Shown: positions 3,604-23,753 of the stretch, piece after piece
Numbering within the stretch: position 1 is the stretch's first letter
Layout: every line of letters begins with the position of its first letter
Notes under the pieces: generated by a model
Seen by the model: the letters and a program-made list of their open reading frames with translations, nothing else
Database searches by the model: none
Told to the model about the DNA's origin: nothing
Assembly: GCA_963741935.1 (NCBI GenBank)
Contig: CAVUJY010000017.1
Location: 14,264-78,263 of the forward strand
Direction of reading: 5' to 3'
From: an uncultured Bacteroidales bacterium
Lineage (GTDB): Bacteria > Bacteroidota > Bacteroidia > Bacteroidales > VadinHA17
Length of the DNA stretch: 64,000 bases
Translations under genes and position numbers: made by a program

Positions 3604-5075
3604 ATGAAAGCATTATCTTACATATCAGTCATTGTACTCTTGTTAATGGGATCCTGTTCATCCCGGCTTTACACAGGAGCAGAGTACGATGATTTGTACT
3701 ATACTCCATCGGATAACCCAGTTGTATCCGCTGCAACTGCTGATAATGAACGGTATTGCCGATAGTCCTGCAGGAAGGGAAGACTATTATGATAATGTAT
3801 ATGCTTCGGATACACTTGTAGCCGATGATTATGCTGATGCCGTTGATTTAAACAGTTCTATTGTAGATAACAATTATGACAACGGAGGATATGACTATTA
3901 TGATAATTTCTCCTATACAGGCAGACTGAATAGTTTTTATGGTAACTCTTTTTATCCTTACTGGAGAGATCCTTACTATTTTGGAGGTGGTTACTCATCA
4001 TTCGGATATGGATTTGGATTATGGCGGTTTCCCATATTCATATGGTTTTTATAATCCCTATACCTGGAACAATTATTATGCTTATAACGGATTTGGTGGT
4101 TATTACGGCGATTATTACGGCGGGTTCTATCCCGGTTATTATGGGGCTATGGAGGTTATTATGGTGGATATTATGGTGGTTTCGGCTCTTACTATTCTCC
4201 GTATGATTACAACGCATGGGGCGGTTATTCTCATAGCGGTATAAGAGATTATTCTGTTCCTTATGGAAGACGGGATCGACCAAGCACTCTTTCATCGAGC
4301 TGGAACAGGAGTACAACTCCTATGGGTTCTGCAAGGAGAGATTCATATAGCACTTCAGGAGGCACCAGTACCTCAAACAGACGGGTGGCTTCAGGCAGTA
4401 CAGAAAATAGGGCAATAGCAACAGATCAGAGAAGAACTAATACTTCTCCTGTAAACTCAAGACAGGCCGTTTCTTCATCCAGAACCTACGGACAAACGTC
4501 TTCATCGAGAAATGCAACGGTAAATTCATGCTTCAAATCAAAGAGAAGCAGTAAATACGCGTCCGGCATATAACAGTGCAAACAGAAGCTATACTCCAAG
4601 TTATAGTAACCCCAGGATGAGTACACGTCCTTCTTACAATAACAGCAGAGCCACTGAAGGTGTGAGCACAAACCGAAATAATGGTTCTGTCACAAACAGC
4701 AGGTCATTTTCAAATCCTGGTGCAAGAACTCCCGCTACCCCGAGGACATACCAGAATTCCAACTCAAGAAGTAATGCCGGCAGTAATACAGGAACAGGAC
4801 GAAGATTTGAACCTTCATCATCAAGATATTCTCCTCCGGCAAGTTCGAACAGGTCCTATACACCACGAAGTACACAAAGTTACTCAGCACCTTCCAGAAG
4901 CAGCTTCAGTAACAGCAGATCTTCATCATCGTCAGGTGCATTTTCCGGATCACGATCATCATCTTTTGGTGGAGGAGCTTCTTCTTCAGGAAGATCAATA
5001 TCCACTGGTTCTTCATCATCAGGTAGTTCTTCTTCAGGTGGCAGATCTTCTTCAGGAGGCGGTACCAGAAGATAA
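3604..5075 (+). pseudogene. Lipoprotein paralog of the preceding gene with the same Tyr/Gly-rich then Ser/Arg/Thr/Asn-rich layout. Four frame breaks as assembled.
   Basis: ATG 3604 gives MKALSYISVIVLLLMGSCSS, a signal peptide with a lipobox Cys. Fragments 3689..4054, 3939..4244, 4322..4573 and 4617..5075 continue it. It shares the motif Y(S/T)xR(I/L)NxF with gene A (FSYTGRLNSFYG versus YYSSRINRFH), GYYGG repeats, and an SR-rich tail ending ..SSSGGRSSSGGGTRR*. AAGGAGG at 3590..3596 lies 7 nt upstream of the ATG. Confidence 0.6.
4089..4198 (+). repeat. Imperfect in-frame coding micro-repeat encoding G-Y-Y-G-G units.
   Basis: ggttattacggcgattattacggcgggttctatcccggttattatgggg..ggttattatggtggatattatggtggtttcggc translates, after one frame correction in the G-run near 4145, to GFGGYYGDYYGGFYPGYYGGYGGYYGGYYGGFGSYY. 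Confidence 0.5.
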
Positions 5076-5162: not shown

Positions 5163-6650
5163 ATGAAAAAGCTAGGATTGATATTATTTGTATGTTTTGT
5201 GATGCTTTCAACCCTTAATTCGCAAAACGTCGACGATGCATTAAGGTATTCTCAGATATTTTATGGAGGAACTGCCCGATTTATGTCAATGGGTGGTGCA
5301 TTTACCGCTTTGGGTGGAGATATGTCTTCATTAAGCCAGAACCCGGCTGGAATAGGGGTATTCAGATCGTCAGAGTTGACATTGTCTCCACAGCTATTTA
5401 AAATTAAAACAACTGCAGGTTTTAATGGTAATACTTCCGATTTCCTGTATAATTTTAATCTTAGCCAGGCAGGTATTGTGAGTAACCTTATCTCGAACAA
5501 TAGAGAATCAGGATTAATCAGCCTTAATATGGGGTACTCTTTTAATAAGACTAATAATCTGAATCAGAGTATGCGGATACAGGGTATAAGTAATTCAAGC
5601 TCAATGGCAGATTATTGGGCCGGTGCTAGTGATGGTACATACTATAGTGATCTTCAGGGTGCTCCCGGAATCGCGTATGATGCCTGGGTAATGGATACAA
5701 TTACTGGTTCAGGGGGAATACGTTATGGAACTGCATTCTCAAATTATGGCGACAACCCACCATCAGTTTATGGTCAGACAATCAGACGTCTGGTATCTTA
5801 CGAAGGTTATACAGGTGAACATGCAATTTCAATAGGTGGTAATTATTCAAATAAGATATACTTCGGTGCAACACTGGGCATAAGCAAACTAAAATATACA
5901 AGCCACTACGAACACCTTGAATCAACTGATATTTCAATGCCTTCAAATTTTCAGAATTTCACATATACCGATCATTATGAGAATAACGGAACAGGATATT
6001 CACTTAAGCTGGGTGCAATAATCAAACCAATAGAAGCTCTTCGCATAGGTCTTGCTTTCCACACTCCAACCATATACCACATAAATGAATATTTCTATGA
6101 GGATATAACATCAAATTTTACCGATGGAGGTCATTATGATATCTCTGATACTCCAATGAGGTACTCATATGCATTGACAACACCGTTCAGGGCCCTGGCA
6201 GGGGTTGCTGTTCAGATCAGAAAGATAGCTCTTCTGAGTGCTGATTATGAATATGTTGATTATAGTTCTGCCAAGTTCTCTGAAACCGGTGATGGTTATG
6301 ATTACAGTGAAAAGAACATGGATATTAAGAACACTCTCCAGTCAACAGGTAATCTTCGCCTGGGTGGCGAACTAAGATTAAACAGACTGTACCTTAGAAC
6401 AGGATATGGTTATTATGGAAAGGCATTCAAACCAGGTGAGGATAATCAGAACCTTGATTACAATACTTTATCATTTGGAGCTGGATTCAGAGAACAGAAT
6501 GTCTCTATCGACTTCGCATATACCAATTATATGTATAAAGAGAAATATATACTGTATCCTCTCGACAACAATTTTGATCCCGCTATAGCCAGTCTTACTA
6601 CAAATAAAAACATGTTTACTGTTTCTCTTGCTTATAAGTTTGGTTATTAA
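5163..6650 (+). CDS. Outer-membrane beta-barrel protein, FadL/PorV-like. This is a family-level guess.
   Basis: Intact 495-aa ORF. Signal peptide MKKLGLILFVCFVMLSTLNSQ. Conserved N-terminal plug-like motif DALRYSQ..GGTARFMSMGGAFTALGGDMSSLSQNPAGIG. Alternating beta-strand pattern and aromatic C-terminus ..FTVSLAYKFGY. Confidence 0.6.
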   Translation: MKKLGLILFVCFVMLSTLNSQNVDDALRYSQIFYGGTARFMSMGGAFTALGGDMSSLSQNPAGIGVFRSSELTLSPQLFKIKTTAGFNGNTSDFLYNFNLSQAGIVSNLISNNRESGLISLNMGYSFNKTNNLNQSMRIQGISNSSSMADYWAGASDGTYYSDLQGAPGIAYDAWVMDTITGSGGIRYGTAFSNYGDNPPSVYGQTIRRLVSYEGYTGEHAISIGGNYSNKIYFGATLGISKLKYTSHYEHLESTDISMPSNFQNFTYTDHYENNGTGYSLKLGAIIKPIEALRIGLAFHTPTIYHINEYFYEDITSNFTDGGHYDISDTPMRYSYALTTPFRALAGVAVQIRKIALLSADYEYVDYSSAKFSETGDGYDYSEKNMDIKNTLQSTGNLRLGGELRLNRLYLRTGYGYYGKAFKPGEDNQNLDYNTLSFGAGFREQNVSIDFAYTNYMYKEKYILYPLDNNFDPAIASLTTNKNMFTVSLAYKFGY

Positions 6651-6722: not shown

Positions 6723-7332
6723 TTAATCAAGGTAGTGTGCAGCTTCAGGACCCATATTAAAAAGAAGATCGAGAATGCTCATGCGCGGAACGAAGACTCC
6801 GGGCCGGGTAAAAACCTGTGTATATTCTTTTGACATCAAAAGATGACTTTGATTTCGGTGAGATGGAATATCTGTAGTCGTCTTCCCCATTTAATACAGG
6901 CTCAAAATAAGTCGTGTAAGATATTTTTTTCTTATACTGAAGGATACTTAAAACGGATACCATTAGATCTATATTAAGGTCAAGGAGATATGGATAACAT
7001 TTTGATATAATCTTCTCAAATGACTCAAAATAAAATTCAAAAAATGGTGAAGAGTTATATGCAGCTATTAATGCCCTGAGGTGAACTTGTATCCAGCGTT
7101 TGGAATAGTCAATTTTTATGTCCTTTACCGGAGTTTTATGAATACTTCCGAGTAAAACCGGTACAGAAAGTATCTGAGGTCCGTGAGCTGTCAGAATATA
7201 GCATCTGTTACGATATGTTTGTTTAAGATAATTCTCCTCTCTTTCAATGAATACTTCGTCTGCATTTGCGATCAGACTAAAGTATTCAACAGGAGCCAGG
7301 TAAGCAGTTGAAACGAGTATCTTCCCTGCCAT
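6723..7332 (-). pseudogene. WbqC-family protein (function unknown), with one frame break near the C-terminus.
   Basis: MAGKILVSTAYLAPVEYFSLI..EREENYLKQTYRNRCYILTAHGPQILSVPV..DYSKRWIQVHLRALIAAYNSSPFFEFY. The family-typical C-terminus ..YTQVFTRPGVFVPRMSILDLLFNMGPEAAHYLD* is recovered in another frame, with its stop at 6723..6725. The start lies 11 nt after the larB stop. Confidence 0.7.
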
Positions 7333-7343
7333 TTCTCAGTATT

Positions 7344-8093
7344 TCAGGCAAGTTTGTTAATCATACTTGCAGAGAAACCTGCCCCAAAACCGTTGTCAAT
7401 ATTAACAACAGTAACACCTGTTGAGCAACTGGTCAGCATAGCAAGTAAGGCTGATATTCCTCCAAAACTTGCTCCATATCCCACACTGGTGGGAACAGCA
7501 ATTACCGGTTTGTCAACAAGGCCGCCTACAACACTTGCAAGTGCTCCTTCCATTCCGGCAATGACAATTATTACCCTGCATTTTCTTATTTCCGGCAACT
7601 TATCCACAAGTCTGTGAATACCGGCAACACCGGCATCATAAATTCTTAAAACATTATTGCCGAGTAATTCAGCAGTAATAGCCGCTTCCTCGGCTACCGG
7701 TACATCTGATGTCCCTGCTGTTATAACTGCGATCATACTTTCAGGAGGGACTGTTTTTTTCTTTTGCATTGATATGATTCTGGCCTCCTTAAAGTAAACT
7801 GCGTCAGGTAAAACCTCTTTTACGGCATCAAACATTTCCTGATTTGCCCGGGTTCCAAAAACATTATTCTCGCTGGTGGCCATGACCCTGAAGATCTCTC
7901 TGACCTGTTCAACCGATTTACCTGCACAGTATATAATTTCGGGATATCCGGTGCGTAATTCCCGGTGGTTATCAATTTTTGCAAACCCAAGATCGGTGTA
8001 TGGGAAATTTTTCAGAATATTCAGGGCTTCATCAATACTTTTATCACCTGTTTTTACATCCTTAAGCAGTTTTTCAACTTCTTTAATATTCAT
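7344..8093 (-). CDS. larB: Nickel-pincer cofactor biosynthesis protein LarB (NaAD carboxylase/hydrolase, PurE-like).
   Basis: Intact 249 aa. ..FAKIDNHRELRTGYPEIIYCAGK.., ..ITAGTSDVPVAEEA.., ..VIAGMEGALASVVGGLVDKPVIAVPTSVGYGASFGG.. Confidence 0.85.
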   Translation of the reverse strand: MNIKEVEKLLKDVKTGDKSIDEALNILKNFPYTDLGFAKIDNHRELRTGYPEIIYCAGKSVEQVREIFRVMATSENNVFGTRANQEMFDAVKEVLPDAVYFKEARIISMQKKKTVPPESMIAVITAGTSDVPVAEEAAITAELLGNNVLRIYDAGVAGIHRLVDKLPEIRKCRVIIVIAGMEGALASVVGGLVDKPVIAVPTSVGYGASFGGISALLAMLTSCSTGVTVVNIDNGFGAGFSASMINKLA

Positions 8094-8197
8094 ATCAGGA
8101 AATTAAGTTGTTCTTTCTGTTCTTTAAATTAACAGGTCAACAATAACGTAATTAGTCCATAATCAGGACATAGGTTATTATGTTTGTTCGTGCCGGC

Positions 8198-9001
8198 TCA
8201 TATACTCCGTATTTCAGGGTTAGAGCTTCCGGTCCTGTAACCTTCAAGGTCCAAAGATACATATCGGAATCCTATTTTTTTCATATTGTATATAATATGT
8301 TCTCTGTCAGGAGTATGAATTATCTTCTCAAGATATCCCGGAAGACATTCAATTCTGGCAACATCTCCATGAATCCTGACTCTTGTTCCTGGATAACCTT
8401 TCTCAAAGAGCATGTTTTCTGCCTGTTCTACCATGGCAATCATTTCTCCTTTTACCTCTGTATCATAAGGTATTCTGGTAAGGAGACATGCCATGGCAGG
8501 TTTATCCCATATATACAACCCTTCTTCTCTTGCCAGAAGTCTGATCTCTTTTTTCGTCAGACCCGATTCGAGCAGAGGACTTCTTATATCCATCTCCTTT
8601 AATGCTCTCATACCTGGTCTGAAATCACCCTGGTCGTCATTATTGGTGCCGTCAATAATATATTTATATTTATTTTCCCTGGCAAAATTCACCAGTTCGC
8701 TAAATAGTGTTTTCTTGCACTGGTAGCATCTGTCGATAGGATTATTTCTGATTATCTCAGGGAAAGGAATGTCCAGAATTTTATGCCTGATACCAAATGA
8801 TTCTGTGAATTCGATGGCGTCCTCTATTTCATGTCCGGGTATATATGGTGTTCTGATAGTAACGGCTATAATACCGCTATTTCGTACAGTAGCCGCCCTG
8901 TGCAGGAGAAAGGCGCTGTCAACTCCTCCCGAGAATGCGACAACAAAGGAGTTCAGCTCCTTTAGTATATTATTTAGTTTAAGTGATTTATTTTCTGTCA
9001 T
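8198..9001 (-). CDS. larE: ATP-dependent sacrificial sulfur transferase LarE (PP-loop ATP pyrophosphatase family).
   Basis: Intact 267 aa. PP-loop VVAFSGGVDSAFLL. Conserved Cys-containing segment DKPAMACLLTRIPY. Sits between larC and larB. Confidence 0.85.
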   Translation of the reverse strand: MTENKSLKLNNILKELNSFVVAFSGGVDSAFLLHRAATVRNSGIIAVTIRTPYIPGHEIEDAIEFTESFGIRHKILDIPFPEIIRNNPIDRCYQCKKTLFSELVNFARENKYKYIIDGTNNDDQGDFRPGMRALKEMDIRSPLLESGLTKKEIRLLAREEGLYIWDKPAMACLLTRIPYDTEVKGEMIAMVEQAENMLFEKGYPGTRVRIHGDVARIECLPGYLEKIIHTPDREHIIYNMKKIGFRYVSLDLEGYRTGSSNPEIRSI

Positions 9002-9165: not shown

Positions 9166-10344
9166 TTAATTTTTATTTTGAACTAACAGAGACATTACGT
9201 AGTTATAGATCTCTTTTACAGGAATGCTTTTTTCCGAAGCAATCTGCCTGCAATCCTCATATTCAGGTTTGAATGAGACTTCCGTCCCATTATAAAATGA
9301 TCTTTTAACGGTTATATCGCCATATTTAGTCTGAAGTTTCTCAATTTTCCTTACAAGTGTATCCTTCCTGAAAGGCAATGTCCTTATACCCAGTGAAGTT
9401 GATTCAGTAAAAATTATACTCTTTAGTACATCAGCTGATTCATTTTCACATATTACGTTGAGTACGATTCCCGGACGCCCTTTTTTCATAATAATATTTG
9501 AAAAGTAAACATCTGAGGCTCCTGCACTGAAGAGCTTCTCGGAAATGTACTGGAAAAATTCAGGGTTCATATCATCAATATTGCATTCGAGCAGAACCGC
9601 ATCATGTCCACTTACGGTATCAGACAGGGTTTCTCCAAGATATACTCTCAATAAATTAGGTATATCCTGTGGATCTTTTTGTCCGATACCATAGCCTGTT
9701 TTTTCAATTTTCATTGTCAGGTCAGGGGTAAAATCAGTTCCCAAGGCTGCAATTATTGCTGCTCCGGTAGGTGTTGTTGCTTCGAAATCAACTCCCCCTT
9801 TTTTAACCGGTAGTCCTTTAATAATTTCAGCTGTTGCAGGTGCCGGAACAGGAAGTTTTCCGTGATCGCACAGAACAAAACCACTTCCCAGTTCAACCGG
9901 TGAAACATGTACTCCATCAACCTTTAAAAAATTATAGCATATAGCTGCTCCAACTACATCAATAATTGAATCAACAGCACCAACTTCATGAAAATGAACC
10001 TTTTCTATTGATATGCCATGAACCATAGCTTCTGCTTCAGCTATCTTCATGAAAATTCTTGCACTCAGTTTTTTTGTTTTGTCATCCAGCTCTGAGTCAT
10101 TTATTATCTTCTCAATATCAGAAAGATGCCTGTGAGCATGTTCATGCCTTGTTTGTTTAACAGTGACTTTTGTTCCTGTAATACCATGTCTCTGGTCCTC
10201 CTGAACCATAAGTTCCCAGCCAGGGAGCTTCAATTTATTCAATTCATTAATTAAAAATGACTTGTCAACACCCAGGTCCAACATCGCCCCCAGATTCATA
10301 TCTCCGCTGATGCCTGAAAAGCAATCGTAACTTATAATTTTCAT
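9166..10344 (-). CDS. larC: Nickel insertion protein LarC (DUF111 family), a single uninterrupted ORF.
   Basis: Intact 392 aa. N-terminus MKIISYDCFSGISGDMNLGAMLDLGVD. His-rich segment TRHEHAHRHLSDI. Typical length. Confidence 0.85.
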   Translation of the reverse strand: MKIISYDCFSGISGDMNLGAMLDLGVDKSFLINELNKLKLPGWELMVQEDQRHGITGTKVTVKQTRHEHAHRHLSDIEKIINDSELDDKTKKLSARIFMKIAEAEAMVHGISIEKVHFHEVGAVDSIIDVVGAAICYNFLKVDGVHVSPVELGSGFVLCDHGKLPVPAPATAEIIKGLPVKKGGVDFEATTPTGAAIIAALGTDFTPDLTMKIEKTGYGIGQKDPQDIPNLLRVYLGETLSDTVSGHDAVLLECNIDDMNPEFFQYISEKLFSAGASDVYFSNIIMKKGRPGIVLNVICENESADVLKSIIFTESTSLGIRTLPFRKDTLVRKIEKLQTKYGDITVKRSFYNGTEVSFKPEYEDCRQIASEKSIPVKEIYNYVMSLLVQNKN

Positions 10345-10554
10345 ATTTTCAAGTCTCTGATATGTTAATAATTTAAAACAATTAAATTTAAGGAATGTTA
10401 ATATATCCCTTAAAATCTTATATTCCGATTCAACCGCTAATATACTACTTACAATCTGTACGAAATAATAAAAAAAAATTGTATTTTCGGCACTTATCTT
10501 CTTTACTGTAAAAGCACTTTTACCACAATAAGAATTAATTAGAATTATAAGATT

Positions 10555-11478
10555 ATGAGAAGAAGAGACTTTCTTAAATCATCGGTTGGAGCTGGTCTGG
10601 CAGCTGGTGCTGCTTTGAGCTTTGGAGGATATGAAAAACTATGGGCTTCATCACCTGCTGCTGCTAAATATGACATGGTTGCTATAATGGGTGGAAACCC
10701 TGATGCTATGTTTGATCTTGGCTATACAGGAGTTTGGAGGAATGGGAACCTTTGTTCAGAAGGGCCAGAAGGTTCTTGATTAAACCGAATATTGGATGGG
10801 ATGTGATTCCTGAGCTCGCTGCTAATACTAATCCTTTGCTCGTTAAACGGATTATTGAGCATTGCTTTAAGGCCGGAGCCAAAGAGGTTTATGTGTTTGA
10901 TCATACATGCGATAACTGGGTTAACTGCTATAAAAATTCAGGAATAGAAAAAGCTGCAAAATCTGCCGGAGCAAAAGTTGTTTCAGGAAATTCGGAAAGT
11001 TATTATCAGCAGATAGAAATTCCGGGAGGCAAAAGACTTCAAAGTGCTAAGGTTCATGAGTTACTTCTTGAAACAGATGTATTTATAAATGTACCTATTC
11101 TTAAGGATCATAGTTCTACAAAAATGACATGTTGTCTGAAAAACAATATGGGACTAGTCTGGGACAGGGGATACTGGCACTCAAATGACCTGAATCAGTG
11201 TATTGCTGATTTTGCCTTGTATGAAAAGAAGCCGGCCTTAAATGTTATTGACTGTTATAACGTTATGGTTAACACATGGTCCTCAGGGTGTTTCAAAAGA
11301 GGATGTGGTTACAATGAAGTCACAGATATTAACCACTGACTGGGTTGCCGGCGATGCAGCTGCTGCTAAAATGCTGAACAGGCCAATTGAGAATGTTGAA
11401 TATATTCCAATTGCTCATAAAATGGGGTTAGGAAACATGAACCTCGAATCTCTGAATATTAAAAGAATAAAAATGTAA
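10555..11478 (+). pseudogene. Tat-signal DUF362 domain protein, with two frame breaks as assembled.
   Basis: MRRRDFLKSSVGAGLAAGAALS is a twin-arginine signal. Fragments 10555..10779, 10734..11339 and 11242..11478 join as ..KVLIKPNIGWDV..NPLLVKRIIEHCFKAGAKEVYVFDHTCDNW..TDVFINVPILKDHSSTKMTCCLKNNMGLVWDRGYWH..VIDCYNVMV..GPQGVSKEDVVTMKSQILTTDWVAGDAAAAKML.. Confidence 0.75.
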
Positions 11479-11484
11479 TTTCTG

Positions 11485-13044
11485 ATGAAATCACCATTAT
11501 TGAGAAGATTCCGAATTATATTTTCAACAATCATATTCATCTGTTTTTTTCTGGTTTTTATTGATTTCAGATCCTATATACCTACCGGCGATATCAATAT
11601 TCTTTTGTATTTACAGTTTATTCCCTCTGTCATAAAGTTCGCTGATCTAAGAACAATTGCCGCAGCAGGCTTTTTATTTGTATTGGTACTTACTTTGCTT
11701 ACCGGACGTACCTATTGCTCTTTTTTATGTCCACTCGGTATCGGGCAGGACATTTTTAGCCGGATTGGCGGACGATTTAAGAAAAAATTCAGAAGGTATG
11801 GCTATAAAAAACCTTTCACCATATTAAGGTATTCAATTTTAGCTATAACCCTTATTGTTACAATGCTATGGGGTATGTATATGGTCATATTACTTGATCC
11901 GTATAGTATTTTTGGAAGGTTCATGACCTATTTTGCCAAGCCTTCAGTATTATACCTGAATAATTTTCTTTCAGGTATTCTTGGAAAGTTTGATATTTAT
12001 ACTCTTAGTAATGTTCCGATTAAAGGTTATCCTCTGATTGCCTATTCCATTCCGGCAGCATTCTTTGTACTTGTTGGTGTTCTTTCTTTTACCAGAGGGC
12101 GTCTGTATTGTAATACTGTATGCCCTGTCGGAACCTTTTTCGGACTCCTCTCGAAAGTATCTCTCCTCAGAATAAAATTTGATGAAACAAAATGTACGCG
12201 TTGTGGCAGATGTTCAATGAAATGTAAGTCCTCCTGCATCGATTTTCTGAATCACGATGTAGATGTCACCCGATGTGTGGATTGTTTTAACTGCATTTCT
12301 ACATGCCAGGATAAGGCACTGTCATATGGTCTTGTTAAGATTAAGAAGAAAGGTCATGAGACTGATGAAAGCAGACGGAGAATTGTTGCAGGGTCTCTGT
12401 TACTGATGTTCGGATTATCACGGACAGCAAATGCCCAGAACACAACAGCCCCAAAACCTAAAAAAGATTCCACAGTAAAAGAGACAAAGACTTCTCCTGT
12501 ATGCCCGCCGGGAGGAAACTCAATTGCTGATTTTAATAAAAACTGTACTTCCTGTTCATTATGCATTAATGCCTGCCCGAATGGCGTACTTCAGCCTGCC
12601 TTTAAACAATATGGCCTTATTGGAATGATGCAACCGGTTATGGATTATCATAAAAGCTTTTGCACATATAATTGTACTATATGTACTGAGATATGCCCCA
12701 CAAATGCATTACATCCGCTGGTACTGGAAGCCAAGAAACTGACCCAGATAGGTAAAGCAAAGTTTATCAAGGATAACTGCATTGTAAAAACAGAAAAAAC
12801 AGCGTGTGGTGCATGTTCGGAGAGTTGTCCTACAAAAGCGGTACATATGGTACCATATGAAGGAAACCTTGTTATTCCTGAAACTAAAGACGATATATGT
12901 ATCGGATGCGGCCATTGTGAATATGCCTGTCCGACAGTTCCCTATAAAGCAATTTATGTTGATGGCAATCCTGTTCATCTGGCAGCAAAAAAGCCTGAGA
13001 ATGAACAATCTGATGTAAAAAGGCCTGTGGAATTCCCATTCTAG
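11485..13044 (+). CDS. Integral-membrane polyferredoxin (NapH/MauN-like N-terminal half plus multiple 4Fe-4S ferredoxin motifs).
   Basis: Intact 519 aa, starting 6 nt after the DUF362 stop. Several TM segments carry CxxxCP motifs (YCSFLCPLG, YCNTVCPVG). Six CxxCxxC(xxx)C(P)-type motifs follow: [64 protein letters not shown]. Confidence 0.75.
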   Translation: MKSPLLRRFRIIFSTIIFICFFLVFIDFRSYIPTGDINILLYLQFIPSVIKFADLRTIAAAGFLFVLVLTLLTGRTYCSFLCPLGIGQDIFSRIGGRFKKKFRRYGYKKPFTILRYSILAITLIVTMLWGMYMVILLDPYSIFGRFMTYFAKPSVLYLNNFLSGILGKFDIYTLSNVPIKGYPLIAYSIPAAFFVLVGVLSFTRGRLYCNTVCPVGTFFGLLSKVSLLRIKFDETKCTRCGRCSMKCKSSCIDFLNHDVDVTRCVDCFNCISTCQDKALSYGLVKIKKKGHETDESRRRIVAGSLLLMFGLSRTANAQNTTAPKPKKDSTVKETKTSPVCPPGGNSIADFNKNCTSCSLCINACPNGVLQPAFKQYGLIGMMQPVMDYHKSFCTYNCTICTEICPTNALHPLVLEAKKLTQIGKAKFIKDNCIVKTEKTACGACSESCPTKAVHMVPYEGNLVIPETKDDICIGCGHCEYACPTVPYKAIYVDGNPVHLAAKKPENEQSDVKRPVEFPF

Positions 13045-13158: not shown

Positions 13159-13581
13159 ATGAAACCATCACATATTGAACACATTGGAATAGCAGTAAAT
13201 AACCTTGAAAAAGCCATCAGTTTTTATGAGAAGGTGCTTGGTCTTACATGCTATAATATTGAAGAAGTACCTGAACAAAAAGTAAGGACTGCCTTTTTTC
13301 TGGTAGGACAGACAAAGATTGAGTTACTCGAATCAACCGATCCGGAAGGTCCGATTGGAAAATTTATTTCAAAAAGAGGAGAGGGGATACATCATATTGC
13401 TTTTGCTGTTGAAGAGATTGAAGATAAGCTGGCTCATGCTGAAAAAGAAGGGGTGAAACTTATTGATCGTGTTCCCAGGAAAGGTGCTGAGGGTCTTGAT
13501 ATTGCTTTTCTTCACCCTGCTACAACATCAGGTGTGCTTATTGAGCTATGCGAAAATAAAAAAGGTAATTCTGAAAAGTAA
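13159..13581 (+). CDS. mce: Methylmalonyl-CoA epimerase (VOC/glyoxalase fold).
   Basis: Intact 140 aa. [58 protein letters not shown]. Lies directly upstream of the carboxyltransferase. Confidence 0.85.
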
Positions 13582-13585
13582 GTTT

Positions 13586-15146
13586 ATGGAAAGTCAGGAA
13601 AAGGTCCGAAAGTTAATTGATCTTCGCGAAAAAGCCCGGCAGGGCGGTGGAGAAAAACGGACAGATGATCAGCATGCAAAAGGAAAAATGACTGCAAGGG
13701 AAAGAATTATCATTCTCCTTGACGAAGGCAGTTTTGAAGAGTTTGATATGTTTGTAACTCATCGTACAGATGACTTCGGACTTAAAGACAAAAAGTATCT
13801 GTCAGATGGTGTTGTGACCGGACATGGTACAATAGATGGGAGAGTTGTTTATGTTTTTGCCCAGGACTTTACAATTTTTGGTGGCTCACTGTCTGAGACA
13901 TTTGCACTTAAGATATGTAAAGTGATGGATCAGGCAATGAAGGTCGGAGCTCCGGTTATTGGAATTAATGACAGCGGTGGGGCCCGTATCCAGGAAGGTG
14001 TAAGAAGTCTTGCCGGCTATGCTGAGATATTTGAGCGCAATATTCTTGCGTCGGGTGTCATACCTCAGATATCAGCAATTTTCGGTCCCTGTGCCGGAGG
14101 AGCTGTTTATTCACCAGCTCTCACTGACTTTATTATAATGAGTGAGAAAAGCAGTTATATGTTTGTAACAGGGCCCAAGGTTACAAAAACGGTAACAGGA
14201 GAAGAGATATCTACAGAAAATCTTGGTGGATCGGAGGTTCATGGAACTAAATCGGGCGTTGCTCATTTCATAGCTGAAGATGAGGAAGAGGGATTGATGC
14301 TTATAAGAAAATTATTAAGCTATCTGCCTCAGAACAACCTTGAGGAGCCACCTCTGATCGATTGCAGTGATCCAATTGAACGTAAAGCTGAAGAACTGAA
14401 TTCCATTATCCCTGAAAATACTAATCAGCCTTATGATATAAAAGATGTTATCTATCATATCGTAGACAATAGTGAATTTCTTGAGATTCATTCTGCCTAT
14501 GCGAGAAATATAGTAGTCGGTTTTGCCCGGATGGGGGGTATGCCAGTAGGCATTGTAGCAAACCAGCCTATATTTCTTGCCGGCGTACTTGATATTGACG
14601 CTTCCAGAAAAGCTGCCAGATTTATCAGGTTCTGTGATGCCTTTAATATCCCAATAGTTACTCTGGTTGATGTTCCTGGATTTCTTCCGGGCAGCAGACA
14701 GGAGTATGGTGGCATAATTGTGCATGGTGCAAAACTTATGTTTGCTTATGGTGAAGCAACAGTTCCAAAGATAACAGTCACATTACGAAAATCTTACGGG
14801 GGAGCTCATTGTGTTATGTCCTCGAAGCAGCTTCATGGTGATGTTAATTATGCATGGCCATCCGCAGAAATCGCTGTTATGGGGCCATCGGGAGCGGTTG
14901 AAATTCTTGAGGGTAAGATATATCGGGGATATTTCAGACCCTGATGAAAAGGCTAAATTCATTTCAGAGAAAGAGTCGGAATATCGTGAAAAATTTGCAA
15001 ATCCTTATGAGGCAGCACGATATGGCTACATTGATGACATAATTGAACCACAGAATACGCGATTCAGGGTAATACGGGCACTGCGTACAATTGCTACAAA
15101 AAAGGATCCTGGCCCAATGAAAAAGCATTCCAATATTCCTCTTTAA
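13586..15146 (+). pseudogene. mmdA: Methylmalonyl-CoA decarboxylase alpha subunit / acyl-CoA carboxyltransferase, with one frame break near 14930.
   Basis: ATG 13586: [76 protein letters not shown]... It continues in fragment 14811..15146 (..EKFANPYEAARYGYIDDIIEPQNTR..). Confidence 0.85.
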
Positions 15147-15996: not shown

Positions 15997-17350
15997 ATGG
16001 AGACCAGGAAACTTTTCACTGTTTTAGGAATATTGATAGTATTATCAATAACCTGGACAGCTTTTGTTAAGCCTGAGAAAGAACGGGCTGCCCAATTCAG
16101 TAATATGGTTACAACCATCACGGCAAGCCAGGGAAAACAAATAGATCAAAACATTGAAAAGCCTGATGCAATGACAGGAATCAGACAATTCTGGTCCTAC
16201 ACAGGCTTCAGAAACTTAACAACCGGTCATATTGCAATGTTGGTGATAGGTCTTGTATTTATATTTCTTGCAATAAAATATGAATATGAACCCTTGCTGC
16301 TGGTCCCGATTGGTACCGGTATTCTTATAGGAAATATTCCTTTTTTTCAGGATGGAGATGTGAATCTTCAGATTGGAGTATATCAACAGGGAAGTGTACT
16401 TAATTACCTGTATTTTGGTGTGCTGAAGGGAGTTTATCCGCCATCTGATCTTCCTGGGTCTGGGCGCAATGACTGATTTTTCATCACTGATATCAAACCC
16501 AAGGCTGATGCTGCTTGGTGCAGCTGCCCAGATAGGAATATTTATTACTTTTATAGGGGCCCTGATACTTGGATTTTATCCCCAGGAAGCTGCAGCCATC
16601 GGTATTATTGGAGGAGCAGATGGTCCAACTGCCATATTTCTCTCATCAAAGCTTGCGAATGGAATAAATATTCTTCCCGATGGTAATACTGTGAAAAACC
16701 TGATCGGTCCCATCGCTATCGCTGCCTATTCTTATATGGCTCTTGTACCTGTTATTCAGCCACCGGTAATGAGACTTCTTACAACAATGGATGAGAGAAA
16801 AATAAGAATGAAACCTCCAAGAGCTGTTTCAAAAGTGGAAAAAATGCTGTTCCCGATAATAGGATTATTAATCACTCTATTTATAACTCCAAGCGCCCTT
16901 CCTTTACTTGGGATGTTGTTTTTTGGGAACCTTCTTCGGGAATCAGGAGTGACCAGGCGTCTTGCTGAGACTGCCAGAACTTCCCTGATTGATATAGTTA
17001 CAATACTTATAGGGCTAACAGTAGGAGCTTCCACCCAGGCTGATGTGTTTCTTACACCCAGTTCGATACTTATTTTTGCACTCGGAGCATTCTCATTTGT
17101 TTTCGCTACTGCCGGAGGCATAATGTTTGCCAAATTCATGAACCTGTTCCTTAGTTCTGAAAATAAAATTAACCCTCTTATAGGTTCTGCCGGAGTCTCG
17201 GCGGTGCCTGACAGCGCAAGGGTATCGCAGATTGAAGGATTAAAAGCTGATCCTACAAATCACTTGCTGATGCATGCCATGACTCCAAATATTTCAGGGG
17301 TTATAGGATCTGCAGTAGCTGCAGGAATACTTTTGGGTTTTCTTGGATAA
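15997..17350 (+). pseudogene. mmdB: Sodium-translocating decarboxylase beta subunit (OadB/MmdB family), with one frame break near 16445-16470.
   Basis: Fragments 15997..16476 and 16469..17350. ..LLLVPIGTGILIGNIP.. then [56 protein letters not shown].. Confidence 0.85.
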
Positions 17351-17391: not shown

Positions 17392-18623
17392 ATGAAACCA
17401 ACAGTAGCAGCTTCAGGAAACTCCGGACCTAAGGTAAGATCAGATTGCGAAGTTGCTCTTGAACTAAGTGGCGCAGGGAGGATTATCTATAGATCTTGTC
17501 TCTAAAGTGAAGGTACTATATGGTGAATCTATAAAAACTCTTGTTTCAGAGGTGCTTGGCCATTTCGGCGTTAAGAATGCAATTGTAAAGATTAACGACA
17601 GCGGGGCACTTCCTTTTGTAATTGCAGCAAGGACAGAGGCTGCTGTTAAGCAACTTATAAAGACAGATATTGAATATTTGCCTGATTTTCTGCCTGAAAA
17701 TGGTTATGCGACAGCACGTTCCCGTTTCCGTTTTTCGCGCTTATATCTGCCGGGTAACAATCCTTCGCTAATGATAAATGCCGGACTGCATTCCGCTGAT
17801 GGTATAATTCTCGATCTTGAAGACTCAGTTGCACCTGAAAAGAAGGATGAAGCACGTATTCTTGTCAGGAATGCTCTCCGCCAGATAGATTTCTTTGGAG
17901 CTGAGAGAATGGTCAGGATAAACCAGGGAGACAGAGGCATAGAGGATTTGCGTTTTCTGCTTCCACACAATGTAAATCTGATTCTTTTGCCCAAATGCGA
18001 AAGTGCAGCTATATATAAACCAGGTAGATAAAGAGATTAAAATTCTCAGAGAGAAATTTAATCTTAAAAACCCGGTTTACCTTATGCCCATAATAGAATC
18101 AGCACTGGGAGTTGAAAACTCATTTGAGATTGCCCGATCCTCAGAAAATATTGTTGCTATTGCTATTGGTCTTGAGGATTACACTTCTGATCTTGGTGTA
18201 CCACGTACAACTGAAGGAAAAGAATCATTTTATGCGCGTACCAGACTTGTTGTAGCCGCTAAAGCAGCAGGCATTCAACCTATTGATTCTGTTTTTTCGG
18301 ATGTCGGAGATATGGAAGGCCTGAAGAAAAATGTTCTTGACTCCAAAGCATTAGGGTTTGAAGGTATGGGTTGCATACATCCCCGGCAGATCAGAATAAT
18401 TCAGGATGGTTACGCCCCTGATGAACAGGAAATAGAAAAATCAAAAACGATAGTACATGCTTTTAAGTCTGCAAAGCTTTCAGGCCTGGGTGTAGTAGCT
18501 ATAGGATCAAAGATGATTGATCCTCCTGTTGTGGCCAGGGCGCAGAAAACAATCGATCTTGCAATCAGCCTGGGACTACTGAACGATAATTGGGCCGGGG
18601 AGGAAATATCAGATATTAAATAG
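17392..18623 (+). pseudogene. citE: Citrate lyase acyl-carrier (CitD-like) domain fused to the citryl-CoA lyase beta subunit (CitE), with two frame breaks as assembled.
   Basis: ATG 17392 gives MKPTVAASGNSGPKVRSDCEVALE.., a CitD-like N-terminus with candidate prosthetic-group Ser. It continues in 17468..18031 (..VKINDSGALPFVIAARTEAAV.. then ..SRLYLPGNNPSLMINAGLHSADGIILDLEDSVAP..) and 18003..18623 (..IIESALGVEN..AIGLEDYTSDLG..GMGCIHPRQI..). Confidence 0.75.
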
Positions 18624-23200: not shown

Positions 23201-23753
23201 ATGAATGAACAGATTTATAAATTATGGCCGGAACTGGAATGGATCAGTGACAAATCGCTCAGGGATAAAACTGCCAGGACATGGGAACTTGCTTTTTCGA
23301 AAAGCGTACTTAAGCCGGAAGACCTGGAAAAAATCCCGTTCACACTTCTCTGCGGACCTGATCTGAAGGTCAGTTTCATGGCACATAAAAGATGTGTTGT
23401 CCATATTGCCCGGGAAAGCGGGGAGAAGATGAATGAATTCTTTAAGGATGATCTTCCCGTTAACATGGATACCCTTATTTCAGGTGCAATTCTTGCTGAT
23501 GTAGGAAAACTGCTTGAATATGAGCTTGATGAAGATGGGACGGGCTGTTCAGGGGAAATACGGACAGTATCTCAGACATCCTTTCTCCGGTGTTTCTCTG
23601 GCTGAAGAATGCGGTGTTCCACCTGAGGTTTGCCATATTATTGCGGCACACGCTCATGAAGGAGATCTGGTTAAAAGGACTACAGAAGCCTATATTGTTC
23701 ATCATGCTGACTTCATGACATTCCTGCCTTTTAAGAGCAGGCTGATCGTGTAA
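23201..23753 (+). pseudogene. HD-domain phosphohydrolase-like protein, with one frame break.
   Basis: Fragments 23201..23605 and 23514..23753. ..HKRCVVHIARE..ISGAILADVGK.. and ..IIAAHAHEGDL..IVHHADFM.. Confidence 0.55.

Follow-up and report, generated by a model that had tools for sequence, protein, structure and literature searches.

The nickel-pincer nucleotide (NPN) is a hydride (two-electron) cofactor. In about 15% of sequenced prokaryotes larB, larC and larE are present while LarA is missing (PMC11796402), and the identity of the NPN users in such larBCE-positive, larA-negative genomes is a recognised gap, to which the answers so far have been NphT and ornithine cyclodeaminase. Here we describe a specific, abundant and easily testable candidate for that gap. 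It lies in a stretch of 64,000 nucleotides (nt), hereafter the window, from an uncultured Bacteroidales bacterium (positions 14,264–78,263 of the forward strand of contig CAVUJY010000017.1, assembly GCA_963741935.1), and consists of a gene for a DUF362 protein and, directly after it, a gene for a membrane polyferredoxin, transcribed divergently from a lar operon.

The closest described enzymes are those of the LarA superfamily (DUF2088, PF09861 plus PF21113; Protein Data Bank (PDB) entries 5HUQ, 2YJG, 9EIA and 9Q3J), with which the window protein has in common the fold of the N-terminal domain (N-domain), a lysine, a nickel-ligand histidine, a histidine of the His174 type, linkage to larB, larC and larE, and a Pfam clan, CL0471. 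It differs from them in matching PF04015 rather than PF09861, in having no LarA_C domain and in the variability of its His108 equivalent. Moreover, it is predicted to be exported by the twin-arginine translocation (Tat) pathway and is obligatorily paired with an iron-sulphur (Fe-S) electron-transfer protein, a pairing that implies net redox chemistry rather than racemisation. The Pfam entry for DUF362 (PF04015) characterises this family as ‘found in some iron-sulphur proteins’; the window protein matches it over its full length and with a high score, but it belongs to a subfamily with a Tat signal, whose Fe-S partner is encoded on its own as a membrane polyferredoxin.

Modules of the NapGH type act as quinol dehydrogenases and supply periplasmic reductases with electrons. 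In the NapGH, NosGH and MauMN modules a membrane NapH-like and a periplasmic NapG-like Fe-S protein link the quinone pool to a periplasmic catalytic subunit; here, in contrast, the two halves are fused, and the catalytic subunit would be a protein of LarA fold, neither a molybdo- nor a copper enzyme. A fusion of this kind has been described in the delta-proteobacterium MLMS-1, whose polyferredoxin (Q1NSB0) is a NapH-NapG fusion (Tooke et al. 2017; PMC5449189). Experiments on that protein established that its first four helices are inserted by Sec, that the fifth transmembrane domain (TMD5), which follows a twin-arginine, is handed to Tat, and that the handover puts a four-cluster domain in the periplasm (PMC5449189). 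Four Sec-type TMDs with CX3CP, cytoplasmic [4Fe-4S] motifs, an internal RR ahead of a weakly hydrophobic TMD5, and four C-terminal [4Fe-4S] motifs are all common to the MLMS-1 and window proteins. However, no catalytic partner is named in PMC5449189, whereas here the partner is consistently a DUF362 protein and Tat dependence is a prediction.

NPN clients unrelated to LarA are also on record, namely NphT, which has the aldo-keto reductase fold, and the NPAD-dependent ornithine cyclodeaminase cited in the same study, from which LarA-homologous proteins were deliberately excluded (PMC13524815). The neighbourhood logic is the same as at the present locus (a gene beside larBCE, no larA, and a His/Lys pair for the cofactor), but these enzymes have TIM-barrel or ornithine cyclodeaminase folds, carry out cytoplasmic hydride transfer and have no Fe-S partner. 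Their use of NPN has been proven by experiment, whereas that of the DUF362 protein is what we infer.

Kinship of the DUF362 protein with LarA

The locus comprises two divergent units, larC-larE-larB followed by a WbqC-like gene on the minus strand, and DUF362-polyferredoxin on the plus strand. A 210-nt spacer separates the start of larC from that of the DUF362 gene (10555..11478, + strand), whose stop at 11478 precedes the polyferredoxin start at 11485 by 6 nt; these coordinates agree with those of an initial annotation of the window made from the sequence alone. That annotation had also held that the DUF362 frame needed correction, and three 1-nt insertions were indeed found in it. The corrected product of 306 amino acids (aa) matches PF04015 from end to end (E 5.8e-47, 160.8 bits against a cut-off of 24, profile positions 1–200 of 200), and has 88% identity to many 306-aa Bacteroidales homologs, which carry PF04015 as well. 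It is a single-domain relative of the LarA N-terminal domain.

Its N-terminus, MRRRDFLKSS followed by an Ala/Gly-rich h-region, conforms to the Tat motif, as first annotated. The putative twin-arginine signal peptide spans residues 1–39 (MRRRDFLKSSVGAGLAAGAALSFGG...AAAK; 10555..10671, + strand) and contains RRxFLK. The pair R3/R4 is invariant in 81/81 orthologs, and is still largely kept among 122 representatives at 33–55% identity (R3 in 114, R4 in 101). The Pfam TAT_signal profile scored 17.6 bits, under its cut-off of 22.7. Export of the DUF362 protein by Tat is thus predicted from its N-terminal motif.

The structure was modelled with AlphaFold2 (AF2) on P0001, an 88%-identical homolog (predicted local distance difference test (pLDDT) 94.5, predicted template modelling score 0.87); pLDDT is low at the N-terminal end, ahead of the folded domain, which begins at E41. 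The best 18 Foldseek matches in the PDB were all of the LarA family (2YJG, 5HUQ, 6C1W, 8EZF/H, 9EIA/D, 4NAR, 9Q3J/K, 6D6Z and 7S91), with E 1.4e-6 to 4.5e-4, probability 1.0 and TM(query) 0.38–0.53, and those that followed were generic Rossmann-type proteins with TM below 0.27. The Pfam DUF362 profile, for its part, matched authentic LarA over residues 82–245 (E 1e-5, 25.8 bits against a gathering threshold of 24), and in AF2 models the order of secondary-structure elements in DUF362 residues 41–272 equals that of LarA residues 39–270, element for element.

The likeness covers the cofactor-binding N-domain only. No match to PF09861 (Lar_N) was obtained, even at E≤10, and none to PF21113 (LarA_C) in the DUF362 protein, which ends about 35 residues past the last N-domain element; lacking both the PF09861 match and the C-domain, it is therefore a relative of LarA that stands outside the LarA superfamily. 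The LarA fold that had been proposed for it holds for the N-domain, on the strength of the 18 Foldseek matches, but does not extend to LarA_C. In LarA, binding of the hydroxyacid substrate falls to LarA_C. The contacts with NPN are made by residues of the LarA N-domain (PMC12611868). Kinship of the two folds is already on record and is not new, since Pfam clan CL0471 comprises both DUF362 and DUF2088 (LarA_N) (PMC11770544).

Four residues of the DUF362 protein had been singled out by the initial annotation: His116 (CAT, 10902..10904), His185 (CAT, 11109..11111), Lys195 (AAA, 11139..11141) and His208 (CAC, 11178..11180; all + strand). Their codons and spacings (69, 10 and 13 residues) proved correct, as did those of H108, H174, K184 and H200 in LarA (66, 10 and 16 residues), the numbering of which was checked against PDB 5HUQ. 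His116 occupies the loop that holds His108 in LarA. By profile alignment, the remaining three correspond to LarA His174 (the catalytic acid/base), Lys184 (the covalent thioamide tether of NPN) and His200 (the fourth ligand of the pincer nickel), as had been supposed. For this mapping, fragments of both proteins were aligned to the Pfam DUF362 profile and the end-points read. DUF362 fragments ending at H185, K195 and S209 reached columns 111, 121 and 137, which places H208 at column 136; in LarA fragments residue 155 started at column 92 and H200 ended at column 136, with H174 and K184 falling on columns 111 and 121 by ungapped offset. For both proteins the alignment extended to column 136 only when the His was in the fragment. 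The pairs H185/H174 and K195/K184 were also returned by hhalign, at E ~0.2, and H208 and LarA H200 each stand next to last in a short helix of the AF2 models, although pLDDT is below 50 in residues 170–219 of the LarA model, which lends the H208/H200 match weak support. The Lys-to-His spacings differ (13 against 16) because of small indels.

H185, K195 and H208 passed the conservation check that had been suggested for them, being invariant in 81/81 orthologs from species-level genomes; each is at least 90% conserved in the 122 representatives at 33–55% identity. The His-Lys-His triad is, moreover, a feature of the Pfam DUF362 profile as such. With this conservation and the shared profile columns, the likeness of these three residues to those of LarA goes beyond chance.

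The polyferredoxin partner and linkage to lar genes

The polyferredoxin gene (11485..13044, + strand) encodes a NapH-NapG fusion of 519 aa with two matches to Fer4_5 and further matches to Fer4 families, four TMDs, a TMD5 and six [4Fe-4S] motifs. Four strongly hydrophobic helices with CX3CP at residues 78 and 209 (Fer4_5, NapH-type) come first, followed by CxxCxxCxxxC motifs at residues 237 and 264, predicted to be cytoplasmic; then come an internal twin-arginine and a weakly hydrophobic TMD5 (SRRRIVAGSLLLMFGLSRTANAQ, aa 296–319; 12370..12441, + strand), after which the C-terminal part, predicted to be periplasmic, carries four more [4Fe-4S] motifs. The NapH-like polyferredoxin with six Fe-S motifs of the initial annotation is confirmed, and each of the 28 cysteines in the motifs is invariant across 75 orthologs. 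The internal motif is conserved as [RK]R in the same set, with R298 present in 74 and position 297 occupied by R in 50 and K in 25. NCBIfam NapH and NapG gave sub-threshold matches, one to each half, both far under the equivalog cut-offs. These features place the protein in the already known family of NapH-NapG fusions targeted first by Sec and then by Tat, and the DUF362 protein and the NapG-like domain are both predicted to be periplasmic. The presence of NapH-like and NapG-like halves is also, by analogy, consistent with the link to the quinone pool that had been proposed. The predicted dual targeting had gone unremarked in the initial annotation.

A genome scan was made with one genome per species and a seven-sequence query alignment, its reach being orthologs of at least 53% identity. 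It recovered 80 loci (53–91% identity) from Bacteroidales, Rikenellaceae, Marinilabiliales, Prolixibacteraceae, Ignavibacteriota, Desulfobacterota, Competibacteraceae, Opitutales and others, and homologs number in the thousands in anaerobic Bacteroidota, Ignavibacteriota, Desulfobacterota and Competibacter. The polyferredoxin gene directly follows the DUF362 gene in 79/80 loci, and in the remaining one the contig ends.

So constant a pairing argues for net electron transfer over a redox-neutral reaction, and bears on the alternative that the DUF362 protein is a LarA-like, NPN-dependent racemase or epimerase working in the periplasm, to which the polyferredoxin is unrelated or contributes in maturation only. 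All characterised enzymes of the LarA superfamily are 2-hydroxyacid racemases or epimerases (PMC11770544), the His174 equivalent is conserved here, and LarA homologs with a single catalytic His exist (PMC12611868). Set against this, the C-domain by which LarA binds the hydroxyacid carboxylate is absent, there being no PF21113 and the model stopping where the N-domain ends, and the polyferredoxin gene lies only 6 nt away in the window and accompanies its partner across the scanned genomes. We regard racemisation as highly improbable.

Adjacency to lar genes was judged in 73 loci, since seven of the 80 have too little flank, and lar genes adjoin the DUF362-polyferredoxin pair in 32 of these 73 genomes. 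A divergent larC lies 89–740 nt upstream in 30 loci, and in two Competibacteraceae larC follows the polyferredoxin gene by 37 nt in the same direction. The Candidatus Competibacter cluster consists of DUF362, polyferredoxin, LarC, LarE and LarB and nothing else, its flanks being, on one side, a CBS-domain gene followed by one for an H+-pyrophosphatase and, on the other, DNA polymerase I. In the DUF362 tree the lar-adjacent members are spread over at least three separate clades, with two gene arrangements, and the chance that a lar cluster lies within 10 kb of a given gene is of order 0.5% per genome. Linkage that recurs, is differently arranged and is so rare by chance is strong evidence of a functional connection, though it is not proof of NPN dependence in every ortholog; the association with lar genes that the initial annotation had asked about thus holds at the level of the locus. 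In the window and related loci no larA homolog was found by tblastn, and in lar-adjacent loci no other candidate NPN client recurs. Among distant representatives (33–50% identity), contigs were mostly too short for lar genes to be called.

Two further loci were noted in the course of these comparisons. On a metagenomic contig (L090), an aldo-keto reductase gene (189–1247) lies about 1 kb upstream of a 49%-identical DUF362-polyferredoxin pair, a single case that may be coincidence. A 3.9-kb contig binned as Chloroflexota (L010, JBLNAO010000422.1) encodes a DUF362 protein of 84% identity that is nested in the Bacteroidales clade, and its assignment is probably a binning error.

A possible nickel-pincer oxidoreductase facing the periplasm

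Most of the computational checks proposed with the initial annotation came out in its favour, and we regard its interpretation as partly supported. On balance we lean slightly towards the reading that the DUF362-polyferredoxin unit is an NPN client, namely a two-component oxidoreductase that faces the periplasm. NPN binding by DUF362, docking, the direction of electron flow and the substrate are the parts of it that we infer. In outline, LarB, LarE and LarC would make NPN in the cytoplasm, and it would be attached, probably in the same compartment, to Lys195 of the DUF362 protein, with His208 completing the coordination of nickel. The folded holoprotein would then be exported by Tat; as the cofactor is made in the cytoplasm, Tat would be the only export route for the loaded protein, and the covalent tether would keep NPN from being lost outside the cell. 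The NapH-like half of the polyferredoxin would be the membrane part, its CX3CP motifs and two [4Fe-4S] clusters facing the cytoplasm, and the internal twin-arginine helix would hand the NapG-like half, with its four [4Fe-4S] clusters, to Tat and so to the periplasm. There the DUF362 protein would dock on the NapG-like domain, plausibly through the face that is covered by the C-domain in LarA, and a path for electrons would link menaquinol, through the NapH-like half and the Fe-S chain, to the pincer site, on the pattern of the NapGH quinol dehydrogenases. Retaining the NPN-tether Lys, the nickel-ligand His and one of the two catalytic His, and dispensing with the substrate-binding C-domain, the DUF362 protein would reduce (or oxidise) a periplasmic substrate at the nickel-pincer site, with His185 as proton relay.

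A number of observations weigh against this reading. To our knowledge no member of DUF362 has a demonstrated function and none has been shown to bind nickel or NPN, and we know of no precedent for the coupling of NPN to one-electron Fe-S carriers. Against PDB sequences, neither phmmer with the protein nor hmmsearch with a profile of 109 Tat-subfamily sequences returned a LarA or a solved DUF362 structure. The hhalign comparison with a LarA alignment, at its E of ~0.2, is weak alone, though the local alignment is as expected; that LarA alignment was shallow and made from best-scoring relatives, and E stayed at this level when 2YJG and 9EID were added. As to cofactor contacts, Asp72 of LarA (ribose contact) aligns, at low confidence, with an invariant Asn78 (KPN motif), and Arg75 (phosphate contact) has no clearly conserved DUF362 counterpart. 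His116 did not hold up as the conserved His108 equivalent it had been taken for, since the position is H in 51, N in 26 and K in 4 of the 81 orthologs, and His in 53/122 distant representatives. The DUF362 gene of the window carries three frameshifts in this assembly, and the LarA tree of the Desguin laboratory has DUF362 as an outgroup (PMC11770544). Finally, in 41/73 assessable genomes the available flanks (5–10 kb) hold no lar gene, and the triad is equally conserved with and without neighbouring lar genes, so that its conservation, which had been put forward as a means of telling the two groups of orthologs apart, does not discriminate between them.

A triad kept equally in lar-less loci could be there for some other ligand, one that all DUF362 proteins share. 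The DUF362 protein, while of LarA fold, would on this account use His/Lys/His for a ligand such as a plain metal ion, another nucleotide-like cofactor or the substrate and work with the polyferredoxin without NPN, and the lar neighbour would serve some other client and owe its position to a lineage-specific accident or to co-regulation. Besides the lar-less majority and the undiminished triad, it is consistent with the self-contained nature of the pair in many lineages, where it sits among unrelated housekeeping genes (in lar-less lineages it stands alone amid unrelated genes, and no neighbour of interest recurs in those loci), and with the fact that the column-136 His is a family-wide DUF362 feature in the Pfam profile. 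Possible true users of lar genes exist as well, in the aldo-keto reductases and ornithine cyclodeaminase (PMC13524815). It fits poorly, however, with adjacency in at least three clades and two gene orders at so low a chance expectation, with a Competibacter cluster that holds solely the pair and larC, larE and larB, with the lack of any alternative client that recurs in lar-adjacent loci, and with conserved residues that are exactly the NPN tether and nickel ligand of LarA. We consider a different ligand unlikely, yet it is the main rival of the NPN reading. Should the NPN reading fail, DUF362 would remain a LarA N-domain in which the triad has been put to another use.

In a full-text literature search no paper linking DUF362 to NPN was found, and the proposal of a Tat-exported LarA half-domain with an Fe-S wire as an NPN enzyme appears new. 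A bolder version can be put forward only tentatively, as we think it rather more doubtful than probable: that the pair is the first respiratory-type nickel-pincer enzyme, a covalently NPN-loaded periplasmic LarA half-domain wired by [4Fe-4S] clusters to the quinone pool, and that DUF362 at large, including ferredoxin-fused cytoplasmic forms and those of the cyanobacterial Npun_F2552 type, is a major missing class of NPN clients that helps to explain the genomes with NPN but without LarA. If the NPN reading is true, NPN chemistry, so far a cytoplasmic and redox-neutral shuttling of hydride, would come to include net electron transfer outside the cytoplasm, coupled to Fe-S clusters and the quinone pool; the large DUF362 family would gain its first function, and the Sec/Tat polyferredoxins a catalytic partner.

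Frameshifts, lar genes and other features of the window

The three insertions in the DUF362 gene (~10722, 10776/7 and 11273), located by alignment with four orthologs, spread the sequence over three reading frames and raise the alternative that the gene is a decaying pseudogene, the unit being non-functional in this organism whatever its orthologs do. Three frameshifts in 0.92 kb exceed the local expectation (Poisson P ~0.01 at 0.46 frameshifts/kb), and the neighbouring polyferredoxin, larC, larE and larB frames are all intact. Nevertheless, comparison with close relatives put the number of frameshifts over the first 28 kb of the window at about 13, some of them in housekeeping genes (prolyl-tRNA synthetase, 822–2275; a citE-like gene, 17392–18602; mmdA and oadB), so that the assembly looks indel-prone and apparent pseudogenes in the window are not to be trusted. 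With about 25 genes examined, one that holds three errors is unremarkable. Moreover, with its indels corrected the gene has no in-frame stops, has every conserved residue and keeps its 88% identity to intact orthologs. The excess is not convincing as evidence of a pseudogene, and decay of the gene seems to us improbable. The genes split in this assembly lie at 3–688, 822–2275, 6729–7332, 13463–15146, 15997–17350, 17392–18602 and 23201–23750.

LarB, LarC and LarE all score far above the curated NCBIfam equivalog cut-offs. The larC gene (9166..10344, − strand), for a cytidine triphosphate-dependent nickel insertase or cyclometallase, matches PF01969 (E 3.6e-147), LarC1 (220 bits, cut-off 90) and LarC2 (145 bits, cut-off 50); larE (8198..9001, − strand), for a sulfur transferase, matches TIGR00268 (290.7 bits, cut-off 150); and larB (7344..8093, − strand), for a nicotinic acid adenine dinucleotide carboxylase/hydrolase, matches NF033503 (301 bits, cut-off 175) and Pfam AIRC. 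LarE has SGGVDS, and its Cys92, Cys95 and Cys172 make up the CXXC-C motif known from Thermotoga maritima, whose LarE is catalytic and [4Fe-4S]-dependent (PMC9283937). It is thus of the T. maritima type, as opposed to the sacrificial single-Cys type of Lactobacillus plantarum.

The last gene of the lar operon encodes a WbqC-like protein (6729..7332, − strand; PF08889, E 5.9e-29) and has a frameshift at ~6846 in this assembly. It is retained beside larB in 22 of the lar-adjacent loci. We know of no role for WbqC-like proteins in NPN biosynthesis; this one may be an accessory factor. In eight loci (L001, L004, L005, L008, L015, L023, L034 and L081) larC and larB are present without a recognisable larE between them, and in L001 a 452-aa open reading frame (ORF; 7141–8499) that has no Pfam match stands in the place of larE.

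The divergent intergenic region between larC and the DUF362 gene (10345..10554) contains two blocks, 10436–10457 (GCTAATATACTACTTACAATCT) and 10464–10493 (an A-run followed by TTGTATTTTCGGCAC), which are conserved when the orthologous intergenic regions of 12 Bacteroidales genomes are aligned, and which may act as promoter or operator elements. An Rfam search of the window, these blocks included, returned no known RNA family, and a scan for sigma-70 promoters and terminators gave nothing above background.

Residues 57–301 of the modelled homolog P0001 match NCBIfam NF052623 (‘Npun_F2552 family’) weakly (E 2e-15, far under the cut-off). Judging from its name, this is presumably a cyanobacterial family. 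Cyanobacteria make NPN and have no LarA (PMC11796402).

Beyond the lar operon, an ORF of 152 aa (4617–5075, + strand), of low complexity and rich in Ser, Arg, Gly and Asn, may not be a real gene. It lies just upstream of an ORF of 495 aa (5163–6650), which we take to be an outer-membrane protein, going by the matches of its relatives rather than by a scan of its own. The counterpart of the 495-aa ORF in L001 matches PF03349 (Toluene_X), and a related ORF in L020 has a weak match to UPF0164.

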